Source: a bacterium UBP13_UBA5359
GTDB lineage: Bacteria > UBP13 > UBA5359
NCBI GenBank assembly: GCA_002410925.1
Contig: DHPR01000008.1
Location: 1 to 40,287, forward strand
Reading direction: 5' to 3'
Length of the DNA stretch: 40,287 bases
Shown: positions 12,703 to 29,589 of the stretch, one piece after another
How the letters are laid out: the number at the start of each line of letters is the position of its first letter
Numbering within the stretch: the first letter of the stretch is position 1
The notes under the pieces: model-generated
Databases searched by the model: none
The model's input: the letters and a program-made list of their open reading frames with translations, nothing else
Told to the model about the DNA's origin: nothing
Translations under genes and position numbers: made by a program

Positions 12703-13551
12703 ATGAAGCGCATCAGAGCTGCACTGGGGATAGCAGCGGCACTCTTCCTGTTGACCGTAATCTTTATCCGATTTGAAGAACGGGCGGCCGGGCTTAACGT
12801 AACGGCTACCACTACCATGATGCGGGCGGCCATCAACGATATAGGTGGAGAACGAGTAAAAGTGAACGTGCTTATCCCGGGAGGGAGTTGCCCCGGGCAC
12901 TATGATATCAGGCCGGGCGATATCCGGACACTGAAGCAAAGTGCCCTCTTCTTTACGCACGATTATGAGGGATTCGTGCCGCGCTTGTGCGCTGCCGCAA
13001 AGCTACCGGAATCACGGGTGATGCGGATACCGGTGTCAGAGAACTGGCAATTGCCGGATGTATATGTCAGGGCAGCGCAGGCGGTTGCCGCCGCTCTATC
13101 CAAAGTGGATGCTGCCGGGCGCTCGGAGTATCTGCAACATTTGAAAGCGGTGCAAGATAAAGCCGGCGCTGTTGAGGCCGAAATTCGCAAGCAGGCCCAA
13201 AGAGAGGATTTTGGCAGCGTCGCTGTAATCTGCTCCGAGCAACAGGCTGCTGTGCTGCGCTGGATGGGGTTCAAAGTAGCGGCCGTCTACGGCAGGCCGG
13301 AGGAGTTTACACCGTCGGGAATGCACCATCTTGTCAGGATGGGTAAGGATAAAAAGGTTGAACTGGTGGTTGATAATCTGCAAAGCGGGCCTGCCGCCGG
13401 TAGAGAATTGGCTCGGGAGCTCGGAGCCCGGCATCTTCTTCTATCCAATTTTCCGGACGGCTTTGATAATACCGAGACATGGGAGAGGACTGTGCTGGAG
13501 AATATGAAGCGCATCGTGACGGCGCTGGGCGGGCGCAAAGATGGGAAATGA
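12703..13551 (+). CDS. Metal ABC transporter substrate-binding protein (ZnuA/TroA-like, atypical ligands)
   Basis: N-terminal hydrophobic segment, VTATTT...IGGERVKV.VLIPGGSCPGHYD, and operon position before the ATPase and ABC-3 permease. Confidence 0.8.
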   Translation: MKRIRAALGIAAALFLLTVIFIRFEERAAGLNVTATTTMMRAAINDIGGERVKVNVLIPGGSCPGHYDIRPGDIRTLKQSALFFTHDYEGFVPRLCAAAKLPESRVMRIPVSENWQLPDVYVRAAQAVAAALSKVDAAGRSEYLQHLKAVQDKAGAVEAEIRKQAQREDFGSVAVICSEQQAAVLRWMGFKVAAVYGRPEEFTPSGMHHLVRMGKDKKVELVVDNLQSGPAAGRELARELGARHLLLSNFPDGFDNTETWERTVLENMKRIVTALGGRKDGK

Positions 13552-14272
13552 TGCTTACAGCATTTTGATAAAGGATATCTGCACGGCATATCACGGTTTG
13601 CCGGTGTTGGAGAGCTTCTCACTGCAGGTGCCGGAGGGGGAACTGCTGGGAGTGTTCGGGCCGAACGGAACGGGTAAGAGCACGCTAATAAAGGTCTGTC
13701 TGGGTTTGGTGCCGGTGGCATCGGGCGAAGTAAGGATATCCGGTTACAGGATGAGCAGAGAGGGCATATCCTTTATTAGAAAATTGACCGCTTATGTGCC
13801 ACAGAGCTTTGATGTCGACAGACGAATGCCGGTGACGGCCGGAGAAGTAGTGATGATGGGGCGTTTCGGCCGGATGGGCCTTTTCAATCGGATTGGCCCG
13901 GGCGATCAAGCCGCCGCCGACGATGCGCTGAATATGCTTGGCGTTAAGCATCTGGCCGGGCGGACTTTCGGCAGGCTTTCCGGTGGTGAAAAACAGCGGG
14001 TGATCGTTGCACGTGCTCTGGCGCAGGAGCCGAAAATATTATTGATGGATGAGCCTACTAATTCGCTCGATTGGGAGTCAAAGAAAAGGATATGCTCTCT
14101 GATACGCGAAGTACATGTGGAGCGAAAGCTGACCACTCTCATCGTGTCGCATGATATTGATCTGCTGGCCGATACATGTGATCGTATCATGCTGATGGAG
14201 CGGGGACATATTATCGGTGCAAGGGATCCATCGGAGTTCAGACACTGTTGCCGCGGGCAGAGGCATTCTTGA
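13541..14272 (+). CDS. Metal ABC transporter ATP-binding protein (ZnuC-like)
   Basis: GPNGTGKST, YVPQ, LSGGEKQRV, LLMDEP, VSHD. Confidence 0.92.
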   Translation: MGNDAYSILIKDICTAYHGLPVLESFSLQVPEGELLGVFGPNGTGKSTLIKVCLGLVPVASGEVRISGYRMSREGISFIRKLTAYVPQSFDVDRRMPVTAGEVVMMGRFGRMGLFNRIGPGDQAAADDALNMLGVKHLAGRTFGRLSGGEKQRVIVARALAQEPKILLMDEPTNSLDWESKKRICSLIREVHVERKLTTLIVSHDIDLLADTCDRIMLMERGHIIGARDPSEFRHCCRGQRHS

Positions 14273-14308
14273 TGTATAATAGAAATTGATGAAAGAGAAA
14301 GGATCCGA

Positions 14309-15259
14309 TTGACGGTGCTGGAACTGCTTCAGGACGATTTTATGCGGCATGCTATTCTGGCTACTTTTCTGGCCGGGGTGACCTGCTCCTGCGTGGGGGT
14401 GCTTGTAGTTACCATGCGAATTTCCTTTATAGGCGTCTGCATGTCGCATGCAGCCTTTGCCGGAGCGCTTCTGGGGATTATCCTGGGTTTAAATCCTACA
14501 GTTGTGGCCCTGATATTTACTCTTCTTGCGGCTGCCGCACTCGGCCCGCTTGCTGATAGGGGTAATTTTAGTCCGGATACTTCACTGGGCATAATTTTCT
14601 CTTCTACCCTTGGAATAGCCTTTCTGCTGCTCAGCCTTGTGCCCGGTCCCAAGACCGAGGCCTTAGGATTGCTATGGGGCAATGTTCTTACGGTTGGAAA
14701 AATAGATATTATTATCCTGGCTGCGGTCGCGTTGGCCATAATCGTGCTGTTGAGGCTGTTTTTTAAAGAGGTTCAAACGGTGGTTTTTAACCGGGAGATG
14801 GCTCTGGCTTCCGGCATTCCGGCCACTGCCGTATTCTACGGTATCCTTATCTGCAGCGGGCTGACGACAGTGGCCTCTCTTAATGCCATCGGCGGACTGC
14901 TGGTGTTCAGTTTAATCATCAATCCCGCCGCTGCCGCCTATCAAATAGCTTCTGATCTGCGCAGCATGTTTTTTATATCCGCCTTGTTCGGAGTGCTGTC
15001 GGGATGGGGTGGCCTATGGCTTTCATATCTGCTCAACTTACCCAGCGGAGCACTGATTATTCTATGCTCGACACTGCTCTTTTTTGGTGCGGTCGCCTTT
15101 TCATCTAAAAAGCGTTCGTGGCCTGCAAAAGCTGTGAGCGACGAGCCGAGATCTGAAATTTGTCAAGGAGGCAAGCTTAACCCTGAAGCAGGCTTGCAGG
15201 GCAAGCCTGAAAACGATAGCCGGCAACCGTGTTCTAAGAGCGCATTAATGGAGGAGTGA
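14309..15259 (+). CDS. Metal ABC transporter permease (ZnuB/ABC-3)
   Basis: Multiple TM helices; SHAAFAG, LLWGNVL, GGLLVFSLIINPAAAA. Confidence 0.92.
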   Translation: MTVLELLQDDFMRHAILATFLAGVTCSCVGVLVVTMRISFIGVCMSHAAFAGALLGIILGLNPTVVALIFTLLAAAALGPLADRGNFSPDTSLGIIFSSTLGIAFLLLSLVPGPKTEALGLLWGNVLTVGKIDIIILAAVALAIIVLLRLFFKEVQTVVFNREMALASGIPATAVFYGILICSGLTTVASLNAIGGLLVFSLIINPAAAAYQIASDLRSMFFISALFGVLSGWGGLWLSYLLNLPSGALIILCSTLLFFGAVAFSSKKRSWPAKAVSDEPRSEICQGGKLNPEAGLQGKPENDSRQPCSKSALMEE

Positions 15260-15262
15260 CAA

Positions 15263-15868
15263 TTGAAGCATAGTAAATTTTTCGATAATCTGGCTGAGAA
15301 ATGGGATGCCATGGAGCGGGAAGATATAGGGCGGCGTCTGTCCAGAGTGGTGGCGGAGGCGGCTGTTCATCCCGGACAGCATATTCTGGATGTAGGTACG
15401 GGAACGGGTGTTCTTATACCTTATTTGCTGGAAGCTATGCAGGAGGAGGGGCATATCCTGGCGATAGATATATCTTCAGGTATGCTGGAGGTGGCCGGCC
15501 GCAAAGCCTTTCCTGCCAATGTCGATTTTTTGCAGGCAGATATAGCGGAGAGCGGATTGCCGGAGAACCGATATGACCGGATATTCTGCAATGCGGTTTT
15601 TCCGCACTTTACCGATAAATCGAAGGCTCTATCGGAGATACGGCGTTTGCTGAAGCCTGGCGGAAGGCTGGTAATTTCACATCCCATCGGCCGGGAGGCG
15701 GTAAACAGCTTGCATCAGGGTGCCGGCGGGGTGGTAGCGGAGGATAGGGTGCCGTCGGCGCAGGTGATGATCTCTCTGCTTGAGGCGGCAGGAATGATTG
15801 ATGTACTGGTTGTCGATGAACCGAATTTTCATCTGGTGCTTGGTGATAAAGCGGTCGCCGGCAGTTAA
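15263..15868 (+). CDS. Class I SAM-dependent methyltransferase
   Basis: ILDVGTGTG motif I, AIDIS..ML, LKPGGRL. Confidence 0.9.
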   Translation: MKHSKFFDNLAEKWDAMEREDIGRRLSRVVAEAAVHPGQHILDVGTGTGVLIPYLLEAMQEEGHILAIDISSGMLEVAGRKAFPANVDFLQADIAESGLPENRYDRIFCNAVFPHFTDKSKALSEIRRLLKPGGRLVISHPIGREAVNSLHQGAGGVVAEDRVPSAQVMISLLEAAGMIDVLVVDEPNFHLVLGDKAVAGS

Positions 15869-16015: not shown

Positions 16016-17815
16016 ATGTCTTTCATTCCATGGTTCCTCGGCGATGCGGGGTTTACCTTTACGGTAGATCCTTTGAGCTGCTGGTTTCTGGCTATTATAG
16101 GTGCGGCCGGTCTTCCGGTCCTGATATTTGCTCCCGGCTATCTGCAACATCTGCGCCATCGTGTTTCACTCAATCTGGTATGGGTTGCTCTGATTCTATT
16201 GATGATCAGCATGGCGGGAGTGGTAATGGCGGCCAATGCCATACTCTTTTTGGTAGCCTGGGAAGTTATGTCTCTCTCTTCCTTTGCTCTGGTTACTGCT
16301 GATCATGAGCAGCGTGACAACCGCCGTGCCGCAATTATTTATCTGGGCGCAACACGGGCAGGTACGGCCTTTCTGATGATCGGGTTTCTCTGGACGCATC
16401 ATCTTACCGGCAGCTGGGTTTTCTCCGAATGGAGTGTTTCCGGGGCGGCGGCCCTGGTTCCCGCTCTGCTGATCTTTGTCGGACTGGCGACCAAGGCCGG
16501 ATGCTGGCCTTTTCATTTGTGGTTGCCCATCGCTCATCCGGCCGCACCGGCGCCGGTATCTGCACTTATGAGTGGCGTTATGATAAAGACGGCTATTTAT
16601 GCCATGATACGGCTTTTTATCCTGGATAACCACTTTGTTCTTCCTCTTCTTGGACCTATCCTGTTGATTCTGGGTGCGATATCTGCCTTTTGGGGGGTTA
16701 TCTTTGCTCTGCTGCAGCATGACCTTAAACGTTTGCTGGCTTATCATAGTGTGGAGAATATCGGCATCATTCTCATGGGGCTGGGTGTGTCGCTTCTTGG
16801 ACAGCGGTATCATCTTCCTTTGCTGGAGCAGCTCGGCCTGGCGGCGGCATTGTTTCATACGCTCAATCACGCCATTTTCAAGAGCTTGCTCTTTCTGGGG
16901 GCGGGTGCAGTGGATGCCTGCACGCATTTACGGGACATCGAAAAACTCGGTGGTCTGGTTCATCGCATGCCATGGACTACGGGAGCCTTTGTAGCGGGCA
17001 GCGCCGCCATTTGTGCTCTGCCGCCGCTTAACGGCTTTGCCAGCGAATGGCTGCTTTATCAGGGATTTTTCAACTTGGCCATGGATGCTCCGTCTGCCGG
17101 GTTGCGGTTTGGAGCTCTCTTGCTGATGGGATGGCTGGCGCTCGTTGGCGCTCTGGCTATCGCCTGCTTTGTCAAGGCTGTGGGCGTGGTCTTCCTGGGC
17201 AGCCCGCGCAGCCGGCGGGCTGCACGGGCCACGGAGGCCGGCAGAGGAATGGTTGTTGCTCAGGTGTTGCCGGCATTGATGTGTATCGCTCTCGGGGTGG
17301 CTGCTCCCGCTGTCCTGGGCCAGTTGGGCAGGATAACATCCCGGCTTGGTGATCCATCACCGCTTTATCATGCCTGGACAATTCCGCTTGCACTTATTGC
17401 TCTCCTGTTAGCCTGCACTGCAGGAGGCTTAGCTATGTGGATGGCGGCCTTGTCCCGTTTGCTTCCGGCCCGGCGATTTATAACCTGGGAATGCGGCTTC
17501 GGTAATCTGGGGCCAAGAACGCAGTATACGGCAACCAGTTTTGCCCAGCCGATCTCGCGTATCTTCGGTGCGGTCTACAGCTACACGGTAGATATCAATG
17601 TCAAGGGGCGAAATCGTCGTTATTTCCCTGATAAAGTTACGGCTGAAACTGCACATGAAGCATATCTGGAAACAAAGGTGTATACGCCGTTGCTGCAGAG
17701 CATCAAGCGGATGGCAGGTATCTTTCTTATGCGTTTGCAAGCAGGCAGCATACATCAATACCTTATATATATGGCGCTGATGCTGGGATTATTGCTCTGG
17801 GTGGGGGTGAGTTGA
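16016..17815 (+). CDS. hyfB: Ehr/hydrogenase-4-like antiporter subunit (HyfB-like)
   Basis: WEVMSL, KAGCWPFHLWLP.AHPAAPAPVSALMSG, KRLLAYHSVENIG, HAIFKSLLF, PPLNGFASEW, TWECG. Confidence 0.88.
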   Translation: MSFIPWFLGDAGFTFTVDPLSCWFLAIIGAAGLPVLIFAPGYLQHLRHRVSLNLVWVALILLMISMAGVVMAANAILFLVAWEVMSLSSFALVTADHEQRDNRRAAIIYLGATRAGTAFLMIGFLWTHHLTGSWVFSEWSVSGAAALVPALLIFVGLATKAGCWPFHLWLPIAHPAAPAPVSALMSGVMIKTAIYAMIRLFILDNHFVLPLLGPILLILGAISAFWGVIFALLQHDLKRLLAYHSVENIGIILMGLGVSLLGQRYHLPLLEQLGLAAALFHTLNHAIFKSLLFLGAGAVDACTHLRDIEKLGGLVHRMPWTTGAFVAGSAAICALPPLNGFASEWLLYQGFFNLAMDAPSAGLRFGALLLMGWLALVGALAIACFVKAVGVVFLGSPRSRRAARATEAGRGMVVAQVLPALMCIALGVAAPAVLGQLGRITSRLGDPSPLYHAWTIPLALIALLLACTAGGLAMWMAALSRLLPARRFITWECGFGNLGPRTQYTATSFAQPISRIFGAVYSYTVDINVKGRNRRYFPDKVTAETAHEAYLETKVYTPLLQSIKRMAGIFLMRLQAGSIHQYLIYMALMLGLLLWVGVS

Positions 17816-18738
17816 TGAATTCGCTCTTTTTGCCTCTATTTCATCTTATAAATCTCCTCCTCCTGCCGCTGTTGCTGATGGGGATAATTCGTAAAGTTAA
17901 GGCGGTTATGCAGAACCGTACCGGTGCGCCGTTGCTACAGCCCTTCTATGATATGGCAAAATTCATTCGCAAGGCGGAAACTATCAGCGGGAATGCCGGT
18001 TGGATATTTGTCTGGGCCCCACGTGTGGGATTGGCGGTAGCGGTTATAGCGGCAATCCTGGTGCCCTGGGCCGGCGTGCTGCTGCCGCCCGGCTGGGCGC
18101 CCGCAACCAATTTCCTGCTGATGCTTTATCTGCTGACTTTAGGTAAATTTTTTACTATGCTGGCGGCGCTTGATACCGGCTCTGCTTTTGGCGGATTGGG
18201 AGCCAGCCGGGAAGCCACCATTTCCATGTTAGCAGAGCCTGCCCTTATCATTGCTCTCGGTGCGCTTGCGCTGGGAGCAGGAAGCACCGATCTGATGACT
18301 ATCTACTCTTCTCCGGCCAGCCCTTTTATTGCTCTTCTGGCGGGAGCAGGTCTGGTAATAACGGCATTGGCAGAGCTTTCACGAATGCCGGTGGATGACC
18401 CTACCACTCATCTGGAATTGACCATGGTGCATGAAGCGATGATTCTGGAATACAGCGGACGCAGCCTGGCGATGATAGAATATGCAACGGCATTGCGTGC
18501 ATGCATATTCTTCGGCCTGGCTGTACAGACTCTTCTGCAGGCCTGGCCGGCTTTTCATGCTTTGCCTTTGCTCTTGCATTATGCTGCAAGCCTGTTAGGG
18601 CTGGTGATGCTGGGTATATCGGTTGCTGTGGCGGAAGGCATCCTGGTGAAGCTAAAGTGGCGAAGTGTGCCTAATTTTTTAACCTTTGCCGTAGTGTTAA
18701 GCCTATTGGCTGCTGTGATTGCGGCTGTTCAATCTTAG
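17815..18738 (+). CDS. hyfC: Ehr/hydrogenase-4-like membrane subunit (HyfC/HycD, NuoH-like)
   Basis: RKVKA.MQNR.G.PLLQP, DTGSAFGGLGASRE, RMPVDDPTTHLELTMVHEAMILEYSG. Confidence 0.88.
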   Translation: MNSLFLPLFHLINLLLLPLLLMGIIRKVKAVMQNRTGAPLLQPFYDMAKFIRKAETISGNAGWIFVWAPRVGLAVAVIAAILVPWAGVLLPPGWAPATNFLLMLYLLTLGKFFTMLAALDTGSAFGGLGASREATISMLAEPALIIALGALALGAGSTDLMTIYSSPASPFIALLAGAGLVITALAELSRMPVDDPTTHLELTMVHEAMILEYSGRSLAMIEYATALRACIFFGLAVQTLLQAWPAFHALPLLLHYAASLLGLVMLGISVAVAEGILVKLKWRSVPNFLTFAVVLSLLAAVIAAVQS

Positions 18739-18776
18739 CATAGCCGAGCCTGGAGAATAACAGAGGAGAAAATCGA

Positions 18777-19421
18777 ATGAACCTTTCACAGATAGATATA
18801 TTGGCGGCAGGTGTTGCTGTGCTGGCTGTTTGGATGTGCGGAGTAACACGCCTGAAGATGCAGGTATGGGGCTTGAGCGGCCAGACAGTGCTCTTGTCCG
18901 GTATTTGTGTGCTGCTGGGGCGGGAAGAGGCTGCGACGGGGATGTTTATTCTGGCGCTGGTGGTATTTTCCATCAAAGCGGTCGGCATTCCGGTCTTTCT
19001 CAGTAAAGCAGCTGAACGCATGGATATCACACGGGACAGAGGCATTTATAATAACTCTACGCAAGCTCTGCTGATGGGATGCGGATTATTGATTCTGGGG
19101 TATTTTATGACGCCTAAAGTTGCTGTTCCAACGATGATGAATCAAGGGACGGCCGGTATGTCTCTGGCGCTGATCTTTATAGGTATGCTGCTGATGGTTA
19201 CACGACGATTGGCACTCAGCCAGGTTGTTGGATTTCTCACCATGGAGAACGGTATCTTTCTCTACGGTCTTACTCAGACAAGCGGTATGCCGCTGTTGAT
19301 GGAAATGGGGATTCTCTTTGAGGCGCTTGTCGGTGTGCTGATAGCCGGTTTGGTCATGTTCAGAATCAACCGCAGCTTTGAGCACATCGATGTTACCGAT
19401 ATGAGGGGGTTACGTCATTGA
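18777..19421 (+). CDS. hyfE: Ehr/hydrogenase-4-like subunit HyfE
   Basis: KAVGIP, QVVGFLTMENGIFL, MPLLMEMG; operon position. Confidence 0.85.
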   Translation: MNLSQIDILAAGVAVLAVWMCGVTRLKMQVWGLSGQTVLLSGICVLLGREEAATGMFILALVVFSIKAVGIPVFLSKAAERMDITRDRGIYNNSTQALLMGCGLLILGYFMTPKVAVPTMMNQGTAGMSLALIFIGMLLMVTRRLALSQVVGFLTMENGIFLYGLTQTSGMPLLMEMGILFEALVGVLIAGLVMFRINRSFEHIDVTDMRGLRH

Positions 19422-20866
19422 ATCCATTTTTGCTGATAAGCGTACTGCCGTTGTTGATGGCATGTCTGGGTCTTTTCCCTCGTGCGGCACGCTGGCTGCC
19501 GCGAGCAGGCGCTATCATTCTTCTGCTTCAGCTTCCGGTGGTGGGTTGGGTATGTCTGCCCGCCTTCTCCGGCGCTACCATTGCCTGCGGCGGCTTTCTT
19601 ATGGATGGTATAGGAGCTGCCTTTACGATTATTACCACTCTGGTGGCGGCAGCCGCTCTTGTTCAGTCGGCTTTGCTGTTGCCCGCCGAGCGGCTTGAAG
19701 ATAGTAAAATGACGGATAGGCGATTCTGCCTGTTTTATACGCTGTCAGGTATATTTATCCTGGCGGTGTACGCCGTGCCCCTCGTTCAGCATCTCGGCTA
19801 TCTCTGGATTGCCGTTGAGGCCACCACGCTGATATCGGCGCCGCTTATCAATTATCATCGCAGCCGTAATTCTCTGGAAGCTACCTGGAAATATCTCTTG
19901 TTATGCAGCGTCGGCATAGCTTTCGCTCTCTTCGGCACGGTGATTATTTTTGCGGCTCAGCATGCTTTCACAAACGGCGGGACCATGATGGCGAGCGAAT
20001 TGGTTGCGCATGCCGGTACCCTTGATCCACGTTTGCTACGTCTGGGATTTGTCTTCTGCCTGCTGGGCTACGGGACCAAGGCGGGCATCTTTCCGCTACA
20101 TAACTGGTTGCCTGATGCCCATAGTGAGGCACCATCCGCTGTGTCAGCCATGCTTTCCGGCGCCTTGCTCAACTCTGCTCTGGTGGCTGTCTGGAGACTA
20201 TCTCAGATAATGGCCGCCGCCGGCCAAAGTGGATTATTGCGTCAACTGCTTGTTCCGGCCGGGGCAATAACTGTGATTGCCGCCAGCATCATGCTGGTGC
20301 GCCAGCATGATTTGAAGCGTATGCTGGCTTATTCCAGCGTCGAGCACGCCGGGCTGCTGACACTGGCTATCGGTATTGGATCGGGAAAGATTTTTATTTT
20401 ACATGCTTTTAACCACAGTCTGGTAAAGGCGGCTCTCTTTCTTTTAGCCGGAGGCGTGACGTATGCTTATGGAACCAAGGCATTATCCAGGCTGGGAGGA
20501 ATTATAAAGAGAGCGCCCGCCTGGGGAATCGCGTTGATGGTAGCCGGTTTTGCTGTTGCCGGCAGTCCACCCTTCGGCACGTTTATCAGTGAATGGCTCC
20601 TGCTTCGCGATGCATTTGCCGCAGGAGAAGTGCTTGCAGTTGCAACCGTGGCGATAGGATTGGCCATTACCCTTATTGCGATTACAACTCATATGGGGCG
20701 GGCAGTATTCGGCAGAGGGCATGCTCCTGTAAGAGATGTGGCTGTGCGCACCTGGACATTGACGCCGGCTGTATTGCTGGCTCTCTCTCTGCTTGCAGGA
20801 GTGGCTATATCTCCGCCGGCGATGCAGATGCTCTCTGTTCTGGCAGGGCAGGGGGGACAGCCGTGA
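19418..20866 (+). CDS. hyfF: Ehr/hydrogenase-4-like antiporter subunit (HyfF-like)
   Basis: WIAVEATTL, SLEATWKY, GYGTKAG.FPLH.WLPDAHSEAPS, KRMLAYSSVEH. Confidence 0.88.
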   Translation: MNPFLLISVLPLLMACLGLFPRAARWLPRAGAIILLLQLPVVGWVCLPAFSGATIACGGFLMDGIGAAFTIITTLVAAAALVQSALLLPAERLEDSKMTDRRFCLFYTLSGIFILAVYAVPLVQHLGYLWIAVEATTLISAPLINYHRSRNSLEATWKYLLLCSVGIAFALFGTVIIFAAQHAFTNGGTMMASELVAHAGTLDPRLLRLGFVFCLLGYGTKAGIFPLHNWLPDAHSEAPSAVSAMLSGALLNSALVAVWRLSQIMAAAGQSGLLRQLLVPAGAITVIAASIMLVRQHDLKRMLAYSSVEHAGLLTLAIGIGSGKIFILHAFNHSLVKAALFLLAGGVTYAYGTKALSRLGGIIKRAPAWGIALMVAGFAVAGSPPFGTFISEWLLLRDAFAAGEVLAVATVAIGLAITLIAITTHMGRAVFGRGHAPVRDVAVRTWTLTPAVLLALSLLAGVAISPPAMQMLSVLAGQGGQP

Positions 20867-22371
20867 AACTGGTAAGTGATAAATTTGAAATAATTGTCGA
20901 AAAGCCGGCTATGCTGGCGATCGCTGCCCGGCATTGGCTGAATCAGCCCGGCCGGCGTTTTGGACATCTGACAGCCAGAGTTTGTGCCGAAAAAAATCTG
21001 GTTATCGAGGTCTTGCTGCTCGATACGCGAACTGGTGGAGGCGTTATTCTGACAGCACCGCTGCCTGATGGAGAATCTGAATATCCTGCACTCTCTCCGG
21101 AAATACCGGCTGCTCACTGGGCGGAGCGCGCTGTCGGGGATTTCTTCGGCCTGCGGGCCTGCGGCCATTTGCGCTGGAAGAGCTTGATACTGCATCATGA
21201 TGTATGGCCTGATGATTTCGCTCCACTGGCACCGCAGAGTATTGCACCTCGGGAACCTTATGCCTTTCTTAAGGTGTCCGGCGAGGGTATTCATGAGATT
21301 CCGGTAGGACCCATACATGCCGGAATTATCGAGCCGGGTCATTTCCGATTCAGTTGTGTGGGTGAAATCATAGCCAATCTCGACATCCGTCTCGGTTATC
21401 AGCATCGCGGGATAGAAAGGCGGTTAACGGAGATTCCCTGGCAACAGACCTCATATCTGGCTGAAGCAGTCAGCAGCGATGCAGCGGCCGGCAATGCGCT
21501 TGCTCACGCTGTAGCGATGGAGCAATTGATGGATATATCACCATCACCACGAGCGCAAACATTGCGTACCATTGCACTGGAAATCGAGCGTTTAGCCAAT
21601 CATATAGGAGATATTGGAGCGCTATGCGGCGATATTGGCTATAGTGCGGGTGCTGCTCTCTTTCCACCCATGCGAGGGGCTGCTCTGGCGCTGGGAGAAC
21701 TACTGACAGGAAATCGTCGTCAGCATTACTATATCAGGCCGGGCGGAGTGGCTCGTGATCTGAATGATGAACGAAGAAGGGACATGCTTCAGGCGCTTTC
21801 GAATATAAAGCTTCGTTTGCAGGAAATCCTGCCGCTGGTTTTTACCAATCCTGCCGTTATCGAGCGTATGGAGGGTACGGGACGCCTTGCGCCCGAACTG
21901 GCTCGTGATTTCGGCCTGGTCGGCCCGGCGGGACGCGCTTCCAAGGTTGAGTATGATGTTCGAAGCTGCTATGCCCATGGTCTTTATCCTGAATTTGCTC
22001 CCGTGCCTGCCGGTCGTGAAGCAGGCGACGCTTTGGCGCGGGCGCAAATACGCGCCGATGAAATCCAGAGTAGTTTATCATTACTCTCCAATATGCTGGA
22101 AAGCATTCCCGGCGGCTCTGCTATGGTTGATTGCCATGACAGGGCTTTGGAGCCGAACAGAGTAGGCATCGGCATTGTGGAAGCCTGGCGTGGTGAACTT
22201 ATACACTGGATCACCGCTGACGATACCGGTGCCATATCACGTTATGCCGTTAAAGATCCCAGCTTCAATAACTGGACCGGCCTGGCGATTGCAGTACGTG
22301 GAAATCTGGTGGCCGATTTCCCGCTGTGCAACAAGAGCTTCAACCTGTCGTACAGCGGCAATGATTTATAG
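20863..22371 (+). CDS. Ehr large subunit (HyfG/NuoCD-like, no NiFe ligands)
   Basis: GTG overlaps the hyfF stop. VGPIHAGIIEPGHFRF, HRGIE, EAWRGE and C-terminal DFPLCNKSFNLSYSGNDL are present; no CxxC L1/L2 motifs. Confidence 0.88.
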   Translation: MKLVSDKFEIIVEKPAMLAIAARHWLNQPGRRFGHLTARVCAEKNLVIEVLLLDTRTGGGVILTAPLPDGESEYPALSPEIPAAHWAERAVGDFFGLRACGHLRWKSLILHHDVWPDDFAPLAPQSIAPREPYAFLKVSGEGIHEIPVGPIHAGIIEPGHFRFSCVGEIIANLDIRLGYQHRGIERRLTEIPWQQTSYLAEAVSSDAAAGNALAHAVAMEQLMDISPSPRAQTLRTIALEIERLANHIGDIGALCGDIGYSAGAALFPPMRGAALALGELLTGNRRQHYYIRPGGVARDLNDERRRDMLQALSNIKLRLQEILPLVFTNPAVIERMEGTGRLAPELARDFGLVGPAGRASKVEYDVRSCYAHGLYPEFAPVPAGREAGDALARAQIRADEIQSSLSLLSNMLESIPGGSAMVDCHDRALEPNRVGIGIVEAWRGELIHWITADDTGAISRYAVKDPSFNNWTGLAIAVRGNLVADFPLCNKSFNLSYSGNDL

Positions 22372-22462
22372 TCCTGCCATAATCATCTATGGCAAGAGAG
22401 CCTGAAGCTATGGTTCGGTTGCCGAGCCTTTGAGCGTATTTACATCTTTTGGAGGCTGAATT

Positions 22463-23209
22463 ATGAGCAATCCGCTTCTGACAATATTAAAAACAGGTAT
22501 TATCACACAGAGAGAGGTATTTCCTGACCTGTCCGATGATGCTGATGGAATGCCTGCTCTTACCGCAGCACCGTGTGCCGGTGTCGCTTGCGGGCGCTGT
22601 ACGGCTGTCTGCCCTACCAAAGCTATCAACCTTTCAGGCGATATTGTTACGCTGGACCGGGGACGTTGCCTGGGCTGCTCCTCCTGTGTCAGGAGATGCC
22701 CTTCAGGAAGCATTATGCACGATCGCTCTACCCGGACGGCCGTGAGCAGGCGTGAGGAGCTTATTCTTACCAATCAGACCAGCGATAAGGCTGCGCCGGC
22801 TCAACCGCGATTGCCGTTCCGAAAATCGCTGCATATCCGTGAAGTTTCCACCGGCGATAATGCCGCCGACTTGGAAATTATCGCCTGCACCAATGCAATC
22901 TTCGATATCGCCCGCTTTGGGATACACTTTGTTGCTTCGCCTCGCTTTGCAGATGCTCTCCTTGTTACCGGTCCTGTCGGCAAGGCTATGCAGGAGCCTT
23001 TGCTGCGCTGTTATGATGCTATGGCTGAGCCTCGCCTGGTGATTGCCGTCGGTGCCGGCGCCATCAGCGGCGGTTTACATAGCGGAGGTTATGCAGAGGC
23101 TAATGGTGTGGACGACCTGCTACCCGTTTCCAGCTATATCCCCGGAGATCCTCCGCATCCATGGAGCATTATTCACGGGATACTTTTGGCCATGGGAAGA
23201 ACGGAATGA
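22463..23209 (+). CDS. Ehr small subunit: 2x[4Fe-4S] ferredoxin domain fused to a NuoB/HyfI-like domain lacking its Fe-S cysteines
   Basis: CAGVACGRCTAVCP and CLGCSSCVRRCP, then RKSLHIREV, RFGIHFVASPRFAD.LLVTGPV and IPGDPP. Confidence 0.85.
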   Translation: MSNPLLTILKTGIITQREVFPDLSDDADGMPALTAAPCAGVACGRCTAVCPTKAINLSGDIVTLDRGRCLGCSSCVRRCPSGSIMHDRSTRTAVSRREELILTNQTSDKAAPAQPRLPFRKSLHIREVSTGDNAADLEIIACTNAIFDIARFGIHFVASPRFADALLVTGPVGKAMQEPLLRCYDAMAEPRLVIAVGAGAISGGLHSGGYAEANGVDDLLPVSSYIPGDPPHPWSIIHGILLAMGRTE

Positions 23210-23393
23210 TTCGAATTTAAATTTGCTTGCTTGCTTATGAAACATTTTCCCGGTGCTCGTTCGTATATTACTATGTTATGCTGCGCTGCGAAAGCTCAAT
23301 AACGATCAGGGCGATAAAGATTCTGCAGGGTATGTTTTCTCGGCCATACGCACCGAGCGCAGGATCCATATCGCGGGAAGGCGAAGGGCTGTA

Positions 23394-24683
23394 ATGGTAT
23401 CAAGATGCAGATACTTCTTTTCAGGCATAGTCCTGTCGATTCTTTTATCGGTGTCCGTTGTCGTGCAAGCAGACGTCGATAGCAGCAAAGGCCTCTCTTT
23501 ACAGCAATGTATAGAGATAGCCATGCAGAATCAGGATGATATTTTGATAGGGGGAAATACGGTAACTGCGGCTACAGAGAGGCAAAAGCGTACTCTGAGC
23601 GATTATTATCCTCGTGTTACCACTCAATACTCGACCGCTCTGGCGGAATCCGGAGGCCTCAATACCAGAAAGGCGGATGGTCTCTCCGTATCTGTTTCGC
23701 ACGATTTCTATGACGGAGGAATCAGAGAGGCTAAAGCGCATGAAGCGGCGGCCGGACTGGCGCAGAAGCTCTTTGCTCTGGACAGAACACGGCAGAAGGT
23801 TCTTTACAATGTAACCCGAGAATATTTCTTGCTGCTTCAAGCCCAGCATCTGGCAGAGGTACGGCACACCCAGGTGAAGTATCTTGAAGGGCAGCTGGCC
23901 ATGATAAGTACTCGCGTCCAGTTGGGTGCTGCAGCACGGGTTGATACTCTTCCTGTTGAGGCGCAGCTCTCCAATGCACGGGTAGATCTGCTGGAGGCGG
24001 AAAATACTATTAGGACCTCGGCTATCCAACTACAGAATGCAATGGGACTCCTTCCGGATCCCGATTTTTCCATTATGGAAACCGCTGAGCCGGCTATCAT
24101 CGCTGTTCGCTCTGTGGAAGATTATGTAACTATGGCGTTATCTGAGCGCCCTGATCTCCAGGAAGCGGAAGCCGGCATCAAGTCTGCCGAAGCCGGGGTA
24201 GAAAGGGCCAGGCTTTCTTTACGGCCGCGGCCTATTCTTTCCGGCTCTTACGATAACTCTTTTGATGGCAAGGATGAATTACGCATCACCGGCGGCATTG
24301 CTTTTAATCTCTTTGATGGAGGCAGCAATCGTGCGACATATCGCGAAGAGGTTGCCAATAGATCAAGTGCTGAGCTGCGCGTTGCGCAGTTGAAAAAAAC
24401 TATCCGGTCAGAGGTGCGCCAGGCATATCTAAATCTTACCTGCGCCGAAGAGCGAATGGCAGCCGCCGACCTCAGCCTGAAAGCGGCACGGAAGAATCTT
24501 GAGGCTCAGGAAGGCCGGTACAAGCAGGGATTGGCTATTACTCTGGATTTGCTCAATGCGCAACTGGAGATAACCACTGCTCAGAGGAATGCAGTACAGG
24601 CGCGCTATGATTACTATCTTTCTATAGCGCAGCTTGAATATGCCGCAGGCAAGCAGGGAGGTTTGTATGAGAAAGCCGACTAA
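23394..24683 (+). CDS. TolC-family outer membrane efflux protein
   Basis: Signal peptide; two OEP repeats (YYPRV...YDGG; PRPIL...LFDGG); RYKQG...LDLLNAQ. Confidence 0.88.
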   Translation: MVSRCRYFFSGIVLSILLSVSVVVQADVDSSKGLSLQQCIEIAMQNQDDILIGGNTVTAATERQKRTLSDYYPRVTTQYSTALAESGGLNTRKADGLSVSVSHDFYDGGIREAKAHEAAAGLAQKLFALDRTRQKVLYNVTREYFLLLQAQHLAEVRHTQVKYLEGQLAMISTRVQLGAAARVDTLPVEAQLSNARVDLLEAENTIRTSAIQLQNAMGLLPDPDFSIMETAEPAIIAVRSVEDYVTMALSERPDLQEAEAGIKSAEAGVERARLSLRPRPILSGSYDNSFDGKDELRITGGIAFNLFDGGSNRATYREEVANRSSAELRVAQLKKTIRSEVRQAYLNLTCAEERMAAADLSLKAARKNLEAQEGRYKQGLAITLDLLNAQLEITTAQRNAVQARYDYYLSIAQLEYAAGKQGGLYEKAD

Positions 24684-26187
24684 GAAAAAACGTCTTATAA
24701 CCGGTGCATTGATTGCACTGCTGGTAATCATCGTTGTTGCGGTGGCAATGCGGCGCAACCATAATAACAAAGGGCAAATGGCGGTGCGTACGGAGGCAGT
24801 GAGCCGAGGTATGATCGTTTCCAGCATTTCCGCTAACGGCGTGCTTAAACCCTTGACTACCGTGGAAGTAAAGTCCAATGTCGGGGGGCAGGTAATTCAA
24901 ATGGCCGTTGATGAGGGAGATGTTGTTCGTGCCGGGCAGTTAATCGCCCGCATCGATCCCTCCGATACCCTGACCAGCTTGCAGCAATCGGAAGCAGATT
25001 ATGCCGGCGCCTCAGCCAAAGTTCGCCAAGCTAAGAGCCAAGCTGATGTACAGCCCAGACTGACGGGTACGGCTATCAAGCAGGCGGAGAGCTCTCTGGC
25101 CTCAGCACAGGCGGCGCTGAAGCAGACCCAAAGCGCCTTGATACCGCAAAAAATCGCCTCTGCCCAATCAGCCTATAATCAGGCTAAAGCTGCTTGTGAT
25201 CAGGCAGAGAAGAGCCTTAAACGGCAAAAGGCGCTGTACGAGCAGGGCTTTGTCGCCGGAAGCGTAGTTGACGATGCTCAGGAAGCGGCAGCTTCGGCCA
25301 GGGCCCAATTGGAAGCGGCTCAAAGCAGATGGAGCACCGTTAAGGAGGAAACGGCGCAGGAGCTTAAGGCCGCTCAGGCCCGGGTACAGGAAGCTTCGGC
25401 CGCATTGGAAGCGACCAGGGCAAATGCCTATCAGGTAGGTATGAAGAGGGAGGATATTGTTCAGGCTCAGGCGGCATTGCAGCGCGCCCGGGCATCGGTG
25501 GATAACGCGCGGACACAATTGAGATACACCTCGATTTATGCGCCGAGGTCAGGTATAGTGGTTAGTAAATATGTGGAAGAAGGCTCCATTATTATGGCTG
25601 GACGAGCCTCGAATGCAGGAGCAGGCTCCGGCGTCACCATCATCGATATAGCGGATGTTATCCGCATGCAGGTGGAAGTCAATGTGGATGAAGCCGATAT
25701 AGGAGAGATTCGTCAAGGCCAGCCGGTACGAATTTCAGTGGATGCTTATCCTGACGAGCGCTTCAGAGGAAGGGTAACCAGGATTGCTCCTCAGGCTGTT
25801 GCGGAGCAGAATGTTACCACCATACCGGTGACGGTAGAGGTATCCGTCCGGGATGACAGGCTGAAGCCCGGCATGAACGCTACCTGCGATTTTATTGTTG
25901 AGCGCAAAGAGAATGCTCTTCTGGTGCCGAACAAGGCGGTCAAAGAGAGCGCCGATGGAACGATGGTAACGGTTTTGCAGCATGGTGAGCAGGTGTCGTG
26001 CCGGGTAAAGACCGGTATCTCTGACGACAGGAATACCGAGATTATCAGCGGTCTGCAGGAGGGTGATCTGGTGGTAATGCCTGCAGGCATGGCATTCGGC
26101 AATGCCGGAGCAGGCAGAAGAAATCAGACCTCGGGGAACGCACCGCGACGCAGTATGCGACGGGGCGGTCCGCCCAGGATGTTCTGA
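24667..26187 (+). CDS. MacA/HlyD-type periplasmic adaptor (membrane fusion protein)
   Basis: N-terminal TM; EVKSNVGGQV..V.EGD.V..GQL, long helical hairpin, IYAPRSG, LKPGMNA. Confidence 0.9.
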   Translation: MRKPTKKKRLITGALIALLVIIVVAVAMRRNHNNKGQMAVRTEAVSRGMIVSSISANGVLKPLTTVEVKSNVGGQVIQMAVDEGDVVRAGQLIARIDPSDTLTSLQQSEADYAGASAKVRQAKSQADVQPRLTGTAIKQAESSLASAQAALKQTQSALIPQKIASAQSAYNQAKAACDQAEKSLKRQKALYEQGFVAGSVVDDAQEAAASARAQLEAAQSRWSTVKEETAQELKAAQARVQEASAALEATRANAYQVGMKREDIVQAQAALQRARASVDNARTQLRYTSIYAPRSGIVVSKYVEEGSIIMAGRASNAGAGSGVTIIDIADVIRMQVEVNVDEADIGEIRQGQPVRISVDAYPDERFRGRVTRIAPQAVAEQNVTTIPVTVEVSVRDDRLKPGMNATCDFIVERKENALLVPNKAVKESADGTMVTVLQHGEQVSCRVKTGISDDRNTEIISGLQEGDLVVMPAGMAFGNAGAGRRNQTSGNAPRRSMRRGGPPRMF

Positions 26188-26217
26188 AAAAGCCTGACTA
26201 AAGGAGATGCCCGGGAT

Positions 26218-26949
26218 ATGATAAGCGTCAAAAATCTGCAAAAGACTTATTATATGGGAGATGTTACCGTTCGTGCACTTAAAGGGGTTTCCCTGGAGGT
26301 TAAAACGGGTGAATTTGTGGCTATTATGGGCCCGTCCGGCTCCGGTAAATCTACTTTCATGAACATCGTCGGTTGTTTGGATAAGCCTACGGAAGGTTCG
26401 TATATCCTTGATCATCAGGAAGTGGCCGTAATGGATAACGATGAACTGGCGCTGGTGCGCAACCGGAAGATAGGCTTTGTTTTTCAGACCTTCAATTTGA
26501 TTTCACGCCGTCCGGCGGTTCGCCAGGTAATGCTGCCGCTGCTTTACAATCCGGAGGTTTCCGATGATTCTCAGGCTATGGCTATAGCTGCTCTGAAGAG
26601 GGTGGGGCTGGGCGACCGTATTCATCATAAACCCAACGAGCTCTCGGGCGGGCAGCAGCAGAGAGTGGCCATTGCCCGGGCGCTGGTAAATAATCCTCCT
26701 GTTATCCTGGGAGATGAACCTACGGGAAACCTGGATACGCGGACGAGTGAAGAGATCATGGCTATATTTCAAAGCCTGCATGCGGAAGGGAAGACGGTTA
26801 TCATTGTTACTCACGAAAGCGATATTGCCAGGCATGCACAACGTATTATACGTTTCAAGGATGGACATATAATTTCCGATCAGAAGGTGGATACGCCTCT
26901 TAATGCGTATGCTGAACTGGAGAAACTGCCGCCGGAGGAAGAAGAATGA
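26218..26949 (+). CDS. MacB/LolD-type ABC transporter ATP-binding protein
   Basis: [43 protein letters not shown]. Confidence 0.95.
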
Positions 26950-28163
26950 ATCTTTGGGAAAGTATTTCCATAGCCCTGGAGGGGCTGGCTGCCAATAAAA
27001 TGCGCTCCATTCTCACCATGCTAGGTGTTGTTATCGGCGTAGCGGCCGTTATTACCATGCTGGCGCTGGCCGGAGGGGCCAAGGCCAGAATGATGAACCA
27101 GATCAAGCAGATGGGCACCAATGTCCTGACGGTAATGGCCAATCGCTCGCGGCGAGGAGGAATTACCGGAAGCTCAGGCAGCAGACAATCGCTGACGCTG
27201 AGTGATGCAGAGGCCATAGCTGACCAATGCTCATCAGTGGTGGGGGTAGCGCCTGAAGTATCATCTAATGCTCAGATCAAGTACCGCAACCAGAATACCA
27301 ATACGAGCGTACTGGGCACTACATCCGATTATCCAAGTGTGCGTAACTACCGAATACGAGAGGGAGAGTTTTTCACCGATCGCGACGTAAGAGCCGTGCG
27401 GAAGCTGGCCGTTATCGGCCCGACCACGGCCGAAAATCTTTTCGGCGGCAGCTCTCCTGTGGGAAAAGCGATAAGCATTCAGGGAACGCGTTTCACGGTT
27501 ATTGGTGTTACAGCTGAAAAAGGCATGGCAGGTGGTTTCAGAGATCCTGACGATCAAATTATTATTCCGGTAACCACGGCTATGCGTAGAATGTTTGGTC
27601 TGGAATATGTTCGGGCTATCAACGTTCAGGCTGCCGGCATGGAGCTTATGGAGCAGGCCGAAATGGAAATTACGGCCTTGCTGCGTAAGCGCCATCGTTT
27701 GGCTGATAACACGGAGGATGATTTTATTATTAGAAGCCAGGCCGAGATCATCGACATGGCTAACGAAACATCGGGGGTCTTCACACTTCTGCTTGGCGGC
27801 ATTGCCAGCGTTTCTCTGTTGGTAGGCGGTATCGGCATTATGAATATCATGCTGGTATCCGTTACCGAACGAACCAGAGAGATCGGTATTCGGATAGCTG
27901 TGGGCGCACGTGGTCGTGATATTCAGATACAGTTTCTGGTAGAAGCCATGGTCCTCTCCATGCTTGGCGGCATTGTCGGCATACTGTTGGGGATGCTCGG
28001 CGCCTTTCTCATCAAGAGCTTCTCAACCATCGCCGCCAGCGTATCAATGGCATCCATTATTCTGTCCTTCGGCTTTGCGGCCCTTGTCGGCATCTTCTTT
28101 GGCTTTTACCCGGCTCGCACAGCGTCCCGTCTGGATCCGATAGAAGCATTGAGATACGAGTAG
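26946..28163 (+). CDS. MacB/FtsX-type ABC transporter permease
   Basis: [46 protein letters not shown]...[10 protein letters not shown]. Confidence 0.95.
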
Positions 28164-28167
28164 GAGA

Positions 28168-29589
28168 CTAAAATCTCAAGTCCCTCTCCCCGGCGCGTAT
28201 TCTGTCAAGATATTCTCTGGCTTTCTGCTGCGCTACGGCGTTGGGAATGGCGTTGAGCTCTCTGGCTATAGCCTTGCCGCCGAGTTCACGCAATTCATCG
28301 TCGCCGTAATCATCGATGTATTCCTGGAATGTCAGGATAGCGTTGGCCTGGCAGACGTTGCCTATCTGTCCCGTCTTGGCCAAATTCATAAAGCGGTCAC
28401 CCGTACGCCCCTCTCTGTAGCAAGCCGTGCAGTAGCTGGGGATATAACCATCTCTGAGCAGTGCTTTCAGCACTGCATTGGGAGAGCGATTATCCAGTGG
28501 TTCAAACTGTGGCTTCTGTTCTTTGCCATCAAGCTTTCCGGCATTTGCATAACCGCCGACGCCTGTGCATGACCCGGCGCTCACCTGCGATATTCCCAGG
28601 GCGACGACCTCTTCACGATAGCCCTGAGGTTCGCGTGTGGTCAGGATCATGCCTGTATAAGGTACGGCCAGGCGCAGAACAGCTACGATCTTCTTGAAAT
28701 CATCATCGGAAACCAGGTAGGGGAAATCAGTTGCTCGTACACCTTCAGCGGCTCTTATTCTGGGTACCGACAGGGTATGCGGTCCCACTCCGAAAGCAGC
28801 TTCCATATGCTCGGCATGCATTAACAGTCCCACGGTTTCATATTTCCAATCATATAATCCGTAAAGTACGCCGAAGCCCACATCGTCAATGCCTCCGGTC
28901 ATGGCTCTGTCATGTGCCTCTGTATGCCATTCGTAGTTGTGTTTAGGCCCGCCCCGGTGCACCTGAAGATAGGTAGGCTTGTGGTATGTCTCCTGGAAAA
29001 GAATGTAAGTGCCGATATCGGCGGCCTTAAGACGGCGGTAATCCTCAACTGTTGTCGCCGCTATATTAACGTTGACCCGGCGAATCTCCCCATGATCGAA
29101 CTTCAAAGAATAGATGGCCCTGATGCATTCGATAATGTAATCCAGAGGGCAGTTGATCGGATCTTCGCCTGCTTCCAATGCCAGGCGCTTGTGGCCCTGG
29201 CTCTCTATCATGCGAACCTCTTCGATCAGCTCTTCTCGGGTAAGCTTTTTTCTTGGTGTGCAGCGTTCGTTGTTATAGCCGCAGTAGGAACAACGGTTGA
29301 TACAGTAATCCGAAACGTAAAGCGGGGCAAAGAGGACTATTCGACGCCCGTAGATATGCTCCTTGACCTTGCGGGCCAGCGCAAACATATCCGCCAGAAT
29401 ATCCGGCGCCGTCACTTCCATCAATACGGCCGCTTCGCGATGAGCCAGGCCATGAAATCCGGCTGCCTTATCCAGAATTTCACGCACACGTTTGGCATCG
29501 CCGGCCTCCTCTTTGGCCTCTTTCAGCGTCGTCTCTATCTCCTCGTGGCAGATGAATTCGTTAGCATCTTTTGATTTAGGATTATACAT
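28168..29589 (-). CDS. hydG: [FeFe]-hydrogenase H-cluster radical SAM maturase HydG
   Basis: CINRCSYC, GEIRRVNVN, LFQETYH, GPHTLSVPR (dangler-Fe His), and C-terminal CTAC-X22-C. Confidence 0.93.
   Translation of the reverse strand: MYNPKSKDANEFICHEEIETTLKEAKEEAGDAKRVREILDKAAGFHGLAHREAAVLMEVTAPDILADMFALARKVKEHIYGRRIVLFAPLYVSDYCINRCSYCGYNNERCTPRKKLTREELIEEVRMIESQGHKRLALEAGEDPINCPLDYIIECIRAIYSLKFDHGEIRRVNVNIAATTVEDYRRLKAADIGTYILFQETYHKPTYLQVHRGGPKHNYEWHTEAHDRAMTGGIDDVGFGVLYGLYDWKYETVGLLMHAEHMEAAFGVGPHTLSVPRIRAAEGVRATDFPYLVSDDDFKKIVAVLRLAVPYTGMILTTREPQGYREEVVALGISQVSAGSCTGVGGYANAGKLDGKEQKPQFEPLDNRSPNAVLKALLRDGYIPSYCTACYREGRTGDRFMNLAKTGQIGNVCQANAILTFQEYIDDYGDDELRELGGKAIARELNAIPNAVAQQKAREYLDRIRAGERDLRF

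Follow-up and report, generated by a model that had tools for sequence, protein, structure and literature searches.

Ehr complexes, the closest described systems to the gene cluster analysed here, are known from ehrABCDLS clusters of Geobacter sulfurreducens and Methylacidiphilum, reportedly described by Coppi in 2005 and by Marreiros et al. in 2013. The complexes occur in many phyla, and the accessible parts of the published accounts call their function unknown and, on the matter of missing cofactor ligands, speak only of the large subunit, which lacks the CxxC ligands of the NiFe site (PMC6349859, PMC10284858, PMC10432482, PMC7304191, PMC6728331, PMC7894505, PMC6688271, PMC4758237, preprint 10.1101/765248). 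In the open literature searched, which did not extend to the founding papers of Coppi and of Marreiros et al., we found no statement that an Ehr small subunit has lost its own cluster. Here we describe an ehrABCDLS cluster on contig DHPR01000008.1 of assembly GCA_002410925.1, whose 40,287 nucleotides make up the window, the whole stretch of DNA analysed. The small-subunit gene, ehrS (22463–23209, plus strand), encodes a protein without any of the four cysteine ligands of the proximal [4Fe–4S] cluster. As far as its homologues tell, this is a variant of the described Ehr kind: the proximal cluster has been lost convergently and across a whole clade, with acids in its place, in a machine otherwise conserved and selected.

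The 'ehrABCDLS' naming (PMC6688271) and the subunit names (PMC7894505) match the six window genes. As in Geobacter and Methylacidiphilum, the complex has the same six subunit types and a large subunit devoid of NiFe ligands. It departs from Ehr descriptions in its small subunit, EhrS, in which all four proximal cysteines are missing; the open accounts speak, on missing ligands, of the large subunit only. By sequence as well as fold, the nearest solved relatives are HycG/HycE of the E. coli formate hydrogenlyase (7z0s) and MbhJ/MbhL of the P. furiosus membrane-bound hydrogenase (MBH; 6cfw). Both pairs carry a proximal [4Fe–4S] cluster and a NiFe site, whereas the window proteins lack the ligands of either. 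The module with two [4Fe–4S] clusters, which forms the separate HycF or MbhN subunit in the solved complexes, is fused to the N terminus of the window EhrS. NuoB (PSST) and NuoD of complex I share the homologous fold, and the membrane arm draws on the same subunit families, but the window complex is without the tandem-Cys N2 site, the quinone His/Tyr pair and the N-module. It shares antiporter-like subunits (PF00361) with the Mrp antiporters, which work without a redox cofactor; NCBIfam Mrp A/D models hit these subunits at 1e-40 to 1e-70, under the cut-offs of the models. Mrp has no NuoH-, NuoB- and NuoC/D-like module and no Fe–S clusters, whereas Ehr retains such a module together with ligands for two clusters.

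The ehrS reading frame is open throughout and is preceded by GGAGG at 22451–22455. EhrS matches PF01058 with 69.7 bits, above the 27-bit cut-off, and stays below the NuoB-type NCBIfam models (the best, NF005012, reaches 103.6 of the 116 bits that its cut-off demands, and the NuoB equivalogs all fall far short of theirs). In HMMER alignments to HycG (7z0s_G, E 1.8e-25; motifs GCNGC, GACG and PGCPP) and to MbhJ (6cfw_J, E 5.3e-23; the same cysteine motifs), the proximal-cluster cysteines fall on D132, A135, G199 and D229. Within EhrS, the domains and the four positions lie as follows.

22463 to 22813, plus strand: ferredoxin-like domain, residues 1–117, matching several Fer4 Pfam families and containing eight Cys
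22814 to 23206, plus strand: NuoB/HycG-like domain, residues 118–248, Pfam Oxidored_q6 (PF01058) at 2.4e-19, without cluster ligands
22856 to 22858, plus strand: D132, codon GAT, position of cluster Cys 1
22865 to 22867, plus strand: A135, codon GCC, position of cluster Cys 2
23057 to 23059, plus strand: G199, codon GGC, position of cluster Cys 3
23147 to 23149, plus strand: D229, codon GAT, position of cluster Cys 4

The loss of all four ligands in EhrS is confirmed. A first-pass annotation of the stretch had reported these substitutions; they are real, and its codon coordinates are exact. A CC motif, the mark of the tandem-Cys N2 site of complex I, is absent from EhrS as well.

At the four ligand codons, no contig from other public runs differs at those it covers. 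Contig X7, from another study, spans 22829–23209 with all four codons and shows 0 differences, while contig X4, also from another study, spans 22607–23113 with three of the four and has a single difference, at 22645. The same lone difference is found in contig X2, which comes from the same study as the possible source and covers the whole of ehrS. This T>G change at 22645, shared by two further samples of which one belongs to a different study, would convert Ile61 to Met in the ferredoxin domain and is a minor strain polymorphism. Run X5 yielded no contig on the gene. A species-level orthologue with 91% identity (L003) likewise reads DAGD at the four sites.

The closest homologues form a set of 121 proteins with 60–100% identity, of which the named ones come from metagenome-assembled genomes (MAGs) of Armatimonadota. 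None keeps all four cysteines (CCCC); 93 have none (zero-Cys), and the partial ones retain one (18 proteins), two (6) or three (4). Site 1 (D132) is Asp in 86 of the 121 and site 4 (D229) in 104, with E in 7, C in 5, S in 4 and A in 1. At site 2 (A135) the set has S in 57, T in 29, A in 16 and C in 14, the rest being others including G, V and M, and at site 3 (G199) it has S in 82, D in 22, G in 6 and C in 6, the rest including A and N. Site 4 is H or N in other related loci. A nearby cysteine, C142 in the sequence IIACTN, lies seven residues past A135 and had been put forward as a possible substitute ligand; it is Cys in just 9 of the 93 zero-Cys homologues. C183 is Cys in all 93. Because C142 is so seldom present and each NuoB-like domain carries only 1–3 Cys, the cluster is not rebuildable from other cysteines.

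A scan of one genome per species recovered relatives of EhrS in 485 genomes, and the small subunits of the best 80 loci comprise 45 CCCC, 22 zero-Cys and 13 partial sequences. On a tree of large subunits only (76 rows), a fully supported clade of 32, mostly labelled Armatimonadota, contains 21 zero-Cys rows (20 loci and the window gene), 11 partial rows and 0 CCCC rows. The sister clade of 44, mostly labelled Melainabacteria/Obscuribacterales, has 43 CCCC rows and one CCDC. Thus the view that Ehr complexes normally keep this cluster holds for the sister clade; it fails for a whole clade and, as shown below, for at least six lineages. The EhrS clade of the window reaches down to about 55% identity, and within the clade of 32 each site switches between Cys and non-Cys 3–5 times on the large-subunit tree. 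We read these patterns as suggesting that the common ancestor of both clades no longer had a NiFe site, and that the set of four cysteines was first breached on the stem leading to one of them, with the leftover cysteines then lost in parallel. Judged by this distribution, loss of the proximal ligands is a derived, clade-wide state and not peculiar to the window copy.

Four loci carry labels at odds with their position. L012, L046, L050 and L066, labelled Bacillota, Proteobacteria, Flavobacterium psychrophilum and Bryobacterales, respectively, nest in Armatimonadota- or Melainabacteria-labelled Ehr clades, and L050 is near-identical to Obscuribacterales loci. Mis-binning or mislabelling of MAG contigs is the probable cause, with recent transfer as the alternative.

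The same loss recurs beyond this clade. A library clustered at 50% gave 150 representatives plus the query, of which 140 have all four columns; 98 of these are CCCC, 28 zero-Cys (query included) and 14 partial. Since 98 of the 140 read CCCC, chance is no sensible explanation of the substitutions. A tree of 139 NuoB-like domains requires 7 changes to account for the zero-Cys state, and well-supported branches force at least 6 of these. Another zero-Cys Ehr lineage (L083–L162) stands apart on the small-subunit tree, its named members being Streptosporangiaceae MAGs (Actinomycetota); 80 metagenome loci of it were examined out of at least 548 relatives. The four sites there read DEDS in 72 of the 80, DEDA in 5 and DDDS in 3, and the NiFe columns are Cys-free in all 65 large subunits found. 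This lineage resembles the window's Ehr in its NiFe-less large subunit, its lack of proximal Cys and its acid-rich sites. It differs in gene order, most commonly B-C-D-L-S-A, and in its ferredoxin domain, which keeps only C50, C69, C72 and C75 (one complete four-Cys set) and has lost the other four. Further zero-Cys groups read DTDN, NEGD/SEGD and TDES, and two zero-Cys lineages bear Chloroflexota labels (10 representatives looked up).

The residues that occupy the vacated sites are rich in acids. Two to three acids are present at the four sites in 24 of the 28 zero-Cys representatives, against a background of 10.4% Asp plus Glu, and 22 of the 28 have Asp at site 1. Counted by lineage, at least two acids occur in 6 of 7 zero-Cys lineages (binomial tail 2e-7). 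No single-nucleotide change turns a Cys codon into an Asp codon. Given this enrichment and the more than one step that separates Asp from Cys, the replacements look selected rather than mutationally convenient. Together, the clade-wide trait and its recurrence in at least six lineages mean that the window gene is not exceptional.

Selection on the genes was estimated as dN/dS (omega, the ratio of nonsynonymous to synonymous substitution rates) by the Nei–Gojobori method, comparing the window with L003. The whole of EhrS gives 0.10, with 0.03–0.037 in the NuoB-like domain and 0.21 in the ferredoxin domain, and the other five ehr genes give 0.05–0.17. Two further close zero-Cys pairs yield 0.076 and 0.097 for the NuoB-like domain; distant pairs are unreliable, their dS being saturated or biased, and some with dS below 1 yield omega values of 0.2–0.5. 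By these estimates, purifying selection on the zero-Cys NuoB-like domain is strong, possibly somewhat weaker than in the CCCC clade. The first-pass annotation had thought sequencing error and random decay unlikely, and the agreement of contigs from two other studies and an omega of 0.03 bear it out. A clade sharing D/A/G/D at a dN/dS below 1 had also been envisaged: the clade is indeed zero-Cys or partial, and close zero-Cys pairs give an omega of 0.03–0.10, but three of the four positions vary within it. The opposite outcome, in which close homologues keep the cysteines and this copy evolves under relaxed selection, is not what we find, with CCCC in 0 of 121 and an omega of 0.03 in the NuoB-like domain.

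Residues conserved at 95% or more in the CCCC group are mostly retained in the zero-Cys group. Of the charged residues conserved in CCCC sequences, those that reach 90% or more among zero-Cys sequences too number 13 of 19 in EhrA, 17 of 22 in EhrB, 7 of 8 in EhrC, 13 of 16 in EhrD and 45 of 49 in EhrL. Replacement of Cys132 by Asp is the sole EhrS position fixed differently between the two groups. An AlphaFold2 (AF2) model of EhrS, built with 81 sequences, reaches a predicted local distance difference test (pLDDT) score of 92.6 and a predicted template modelling (pTM) score of 0.89, with the NuoB-like domain mostly at 93–98. The modelled NuoB-like domain superposes on HycG (7z0s_G) with a root-mean-square deviation of 1.2 Å over 131 columns at 40% identity, and Foldseek assigns the EhrS model a probability of 1.00 to HycG, MbhJ and PSST chains.

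The N-terminal domain of EhrS retains the ligands of its predicted clusters. Its cysteines at 38, 43, 46 and 50 and at 69, 72, 75 and 79 form two motifs, C38-x4-C43-x2-C46-x3-C50-P and C69-x2-C72-x2-C75-x3-C79-P, from which two clusters are predicted; the first has the form Cx4CxxCxxxCP, against the textbook CxxCxxCxxxCP. All eight ligand cysteines are present, as the initial description of two intact ferredoxin-domain clusters implied, and the set is complete in all 121 close homologues as well as in every zero-Cys row (23 of 23) and every partial one (13 of 13).

EhrL, the large subunit, is without a NiFe site, again as described at first pass. The four NiFe cysteines of HycE (7z0s_E) align to S204, A207, S496 and G499 of EhrL, so that the HycE motifs RVCGIC and DPCYSC stand opposite AVSSDA and NLSYSG. 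H38 and Y87 of T. thermophilus Nqo4, named as quinone ligands in PMC4758237, align to I156 and S205. Across the loci related to EhrS, the NiFe columns are free of Cys in 77 of 77 large subunits, in CCCC and zero-Cys clades alike, and the quinone His/Tyr columns hold I and S/T/G/A in 76 of the 77, the remaining row being gapped. EhrL and EhrS have neither the NiFe ligands nor the proximal-cluster ligands that mark a group 4 [NiFe]-hydrogenase. With the NiFe ligands and the quinone Tyr/His both absent, the complex is of Ehr type, neither a hydrogenase nor a quinone reductase.

The source genome supplies its own control. It comprises 2.25 Mb at 98% completeness and contains just one PF01058 protein besides EhrS, which belongs to an Ech-type group 4 [NiFe]-hydrogenase operon (G000:C40:106000-124000, L163) of NuoL-like, NuoH-like, small, NuoC-like and large subunits. 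The ligands there are complete: the small subunit has CNSCNGC, GACG and PGCPP, the large one has RICGICS and DPCISCTER, and hypA, hypB and a HypC-radical S-adenosylmethionine (SAM) fusion adjoin the operon. Thus the organism is able to build and employ the canonical sites, and its Ehr paralogue differs from Ech by design. In the genome library, the source genome falls in a phylum-level group of three species genomes in one genus, and its nearest Ehr proteins are Armatimonadota-labelled. Because this group is so small, we call the clade Armatimonadota-labelled and give the organism no phylum; its placement is unsettled.

All six genes lie in a compact cluster at 16016–23209 on the plus strand, with ehrS last.

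16016 to 17815, plus strand: ehrA, 599 amino acids, NuoL/HyfB-like antiporter-type membrane subunit (Pfam Proton_antipo_M 3.5e-55)
17812 to 18738, plus strand: ehrB, 308 amino acids, NuoH/HyfC-like membrane subunit (Pfam NADHdh 1.9e-35; position in the cluster conserved)
18777 to 19421, plus strand: ehrC, 214 amino acids, HyfE/NuoK-like membrane subunit (NCBIfam hydrogenase 4 membrane subunit 1.4e-21, under cut-off; Pfam Oxidored_q2 3.3e-4)
19418 to 20866, plus strand: ehrD, 482 amino acids, HyfF/NuoM-N-like antiporter-type subunit (Pfam Proton_antipo_M 3.8e-50; NCBIfam hydrogenase 4 subunit F 8.3e-96, under cut-off)
20863 to 22371, plus strand: ehrL, 502 amino acids, NuoC+NuoD/HycE-like large subunit without NiFe ligands (HycE 7z0s_E, E 1.2e-71)
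22463 to 23209, plus strand: ehrS, 248 amino acids, small subunit with an N-terminal 2×[4Fe–4S] ferredoxin-like domain and a NuoB/HycG-like domain

All six frames are intact, and the order A-B-C-D-L-S, with ehrA first, recurs in every related locus with sufficient flank. The start of ehrL is most likely the GTG at 20863, which overlaps the ehrD stop as GTGA; the program-made list of open reading frames begins it at the ATG at 20593, within ehrD. None of the six proteins reaches a curated NCBIfam cut-off, the top match of EhrA (hydrogenase 4 subunit B) scoring 557.9 bits under a cut-off of 667. The cluster carries both marks of an Ehr system, a NiFe-less large subunit of group 4 type and the four membrane subunit types together with L and S. 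Residue 344 of EhrA (17045–17047, in GFAS[K/E]W) is Lys in 37 of 37 CCCC loci, whereas all 16 zero-Cys rows and 7 of the 8 partial ones have Glu; we take it to resemble the conserved Lys/Glu of transmembrane helix 12 in antiporter-like subunits. The switch tracks the clade and may reflect lineage history rather than a link to the cluster loss.

Upstream of the cluster, 13541–15868 encodes a Zn/Mn-type ATP-binding cassette (ABC) transporter and a SAM methyltransferase. Downstream, 23253–28163 holds an efflux set of TolC-like, HlyD and MacB-type ABC proteins, beyond which a radical SAM protein of 473 amino acids with a BATS domain (BioB/ThiH/HydG-like) lies on the minus strand at 28168–29589. 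Neither the efflux set nor the transporter and methyltransferase genes are conserved beside Ehr in related loci. Among zero-Cys loci no flanking gene family is common, and flanks are shared only among closely related CCCC loci.

We consider it somewhat probable that, taken overall, the best explanation is an EhrS without a proximal cluster, in which the electron wire is cut, carboxylates stand in for the cluster and the complex acts as an ion-translocating module without redox drive at the canonical site. In solved complex I and MBH, electrons need the proximal cluster as a stepping stone between the ferredoxin-type clusters and the pocket. Were the old site to hold no Fe–S cluster, electrons would no longer reach the pocket between the large, small and NuoH-like subunits. 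Carboxylate and hydroxyl side chains would instead occupy the vacated site, where Asp is close to fixation at site 1 and the acids usually number two or three in all. These acids may replace the bulk and the negative charge of [4Fe–4S](Cys)4 and so keep the interface of the small, large and NuoH-like subunits in working shape. The least certain steps concern function. By analogy with Mrp and complex I, the complex could translocate ions without drawing power from redox reactions at the canonical site, and the ferredoxin-domain clusters could gate or regulate it by their redox state, or exchange electrons with outside partners. More tentatively still, and with clear reservations, the carboxylates might be a natural fixed-charge stand-in for N2; complex I-type machines without electron delivery to the pocket might then be redox-gated, gradient-driven cation/proton exchangers, or pumps running on chemistry new to the superfamily.

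Several observations sit uneasily with this account. Only one acid is present at the four sites in 9 of 23 zero-Cys rows (22 loci and the window gene), and the charge-mimic idea, drawn from residue counts, stays conjectural. The strict conservation of the ferredoxin cysteines argues that redox chemistry still matters, which is awkward for a purely non-redox transporter. Zero-Cys pairs give omega values of 0.03–0.10, against about 0.02 for close CCCC pairs, the pairs being unmatched for divergence, and there may be some relaxation in the zero-Cys clade. Nor does any related locus offer a conserved neighbour gene that hints at function.

The same ferredoxin conservation also favours a still redox-driven complex, the first idea of the first-pass annotation, in which the ferredoxin clusters end the wire and either their redox cycling or the reduction of a substrate in the vacated space drives ion translocation. 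The eight cysteines are invariant in every close homologue and in all 36 zero-Cys and partial rows, the independent DEDS lineage keeps exactly one complete set, and the pTM score suggests a fixed arrangement of the two EhrS domains in the model. However, no acceptor site is evident, with the NiFe ligands and the quinone Tyr/His absent, and the proximal cluster is the stepping stone to the pocket in solved relatives. The ferredoxin domain is also the faster-evolving of the two, at an omega of 0.21 against 0.037 in the NuoB-like domain. On balance we judge a complex of this kind unlikely.

Alternatively, as the first-pass annotation suggested second, the Asp/Ser-lined site could bind another metal or ligand, such as a mononuclear metal ion (Fe, Mn, Zn, Ca or Mg) or a cation in translocation, and constitute a new functional centre. 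The near-fixation of Asp at site 1 and the recurrence of acids in independent lineages would fit such a site, and the idea is more plausible in the Actinomycetota-labelled lineage, where DEDS in 72 of 80 loci resembles a defined site. In the window's clade, by contrast, sites 2–4 vary, which speaks against a defined Asp-based site, and the Ala and Gly of the window EhrS leave two carboxylates, too few unless other residues help. A new metal centre is accordingly a poor bet overall, at slightly longer odds than redox drive through the ferredoxin clusters.

A decaying remnant under relaxed selection might explain why three of the cofactor sites inherited from the ancestral hydrogenase have disappeared or changed and why the remaining cysteines were lost piecemeal, at 3–5 changes per site, yet omega is 0.03–0.10 in the NuoB-like domain and 0.05–0.17 in the other subunits, and six intact frames in conserved order persist across a clade reaching down to about 55% identity, so that decay is highly improbable. 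A normal cluster rebuilt from cysteines such as C142 or the invariant C183, or an assembly artefact, is just as implausible, given the rarity of C142, the scarcity of Cys in the NuoB-like domain, and the identical codons in contigs of two other studies and DAGD in a 91%-identical genome. Between them, conserved gene order, low omega, matching contigs and scarce Cys contradict decay, artefact and rebuilding.

The cut-wire, carboxylate-filled Ehr module that we favour bears on the family more than on the single gene, which a specialist would not find surprising once its clade is seen. Orthologues with CCCC and without any of the four cysteines form a natural pair for studying how the peripheral arm is coupled to ion translocation in the complex I superfamily, and, if the fixed-charge reading is true, CCCC sisters set against zero-Cys complexes would be a ready test of the role of N2 charge in that coupling. 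That acids have convergently taken the place of the cluster is an idea concrete enough to be tested by structure. Should entire lineages indeed have dropped the last cluster of the wire while the rest of the machine stays under strong selection, fewer functions are open to Ehr, and redox chemistry in the large-subunit pocket would be very unlikely there.

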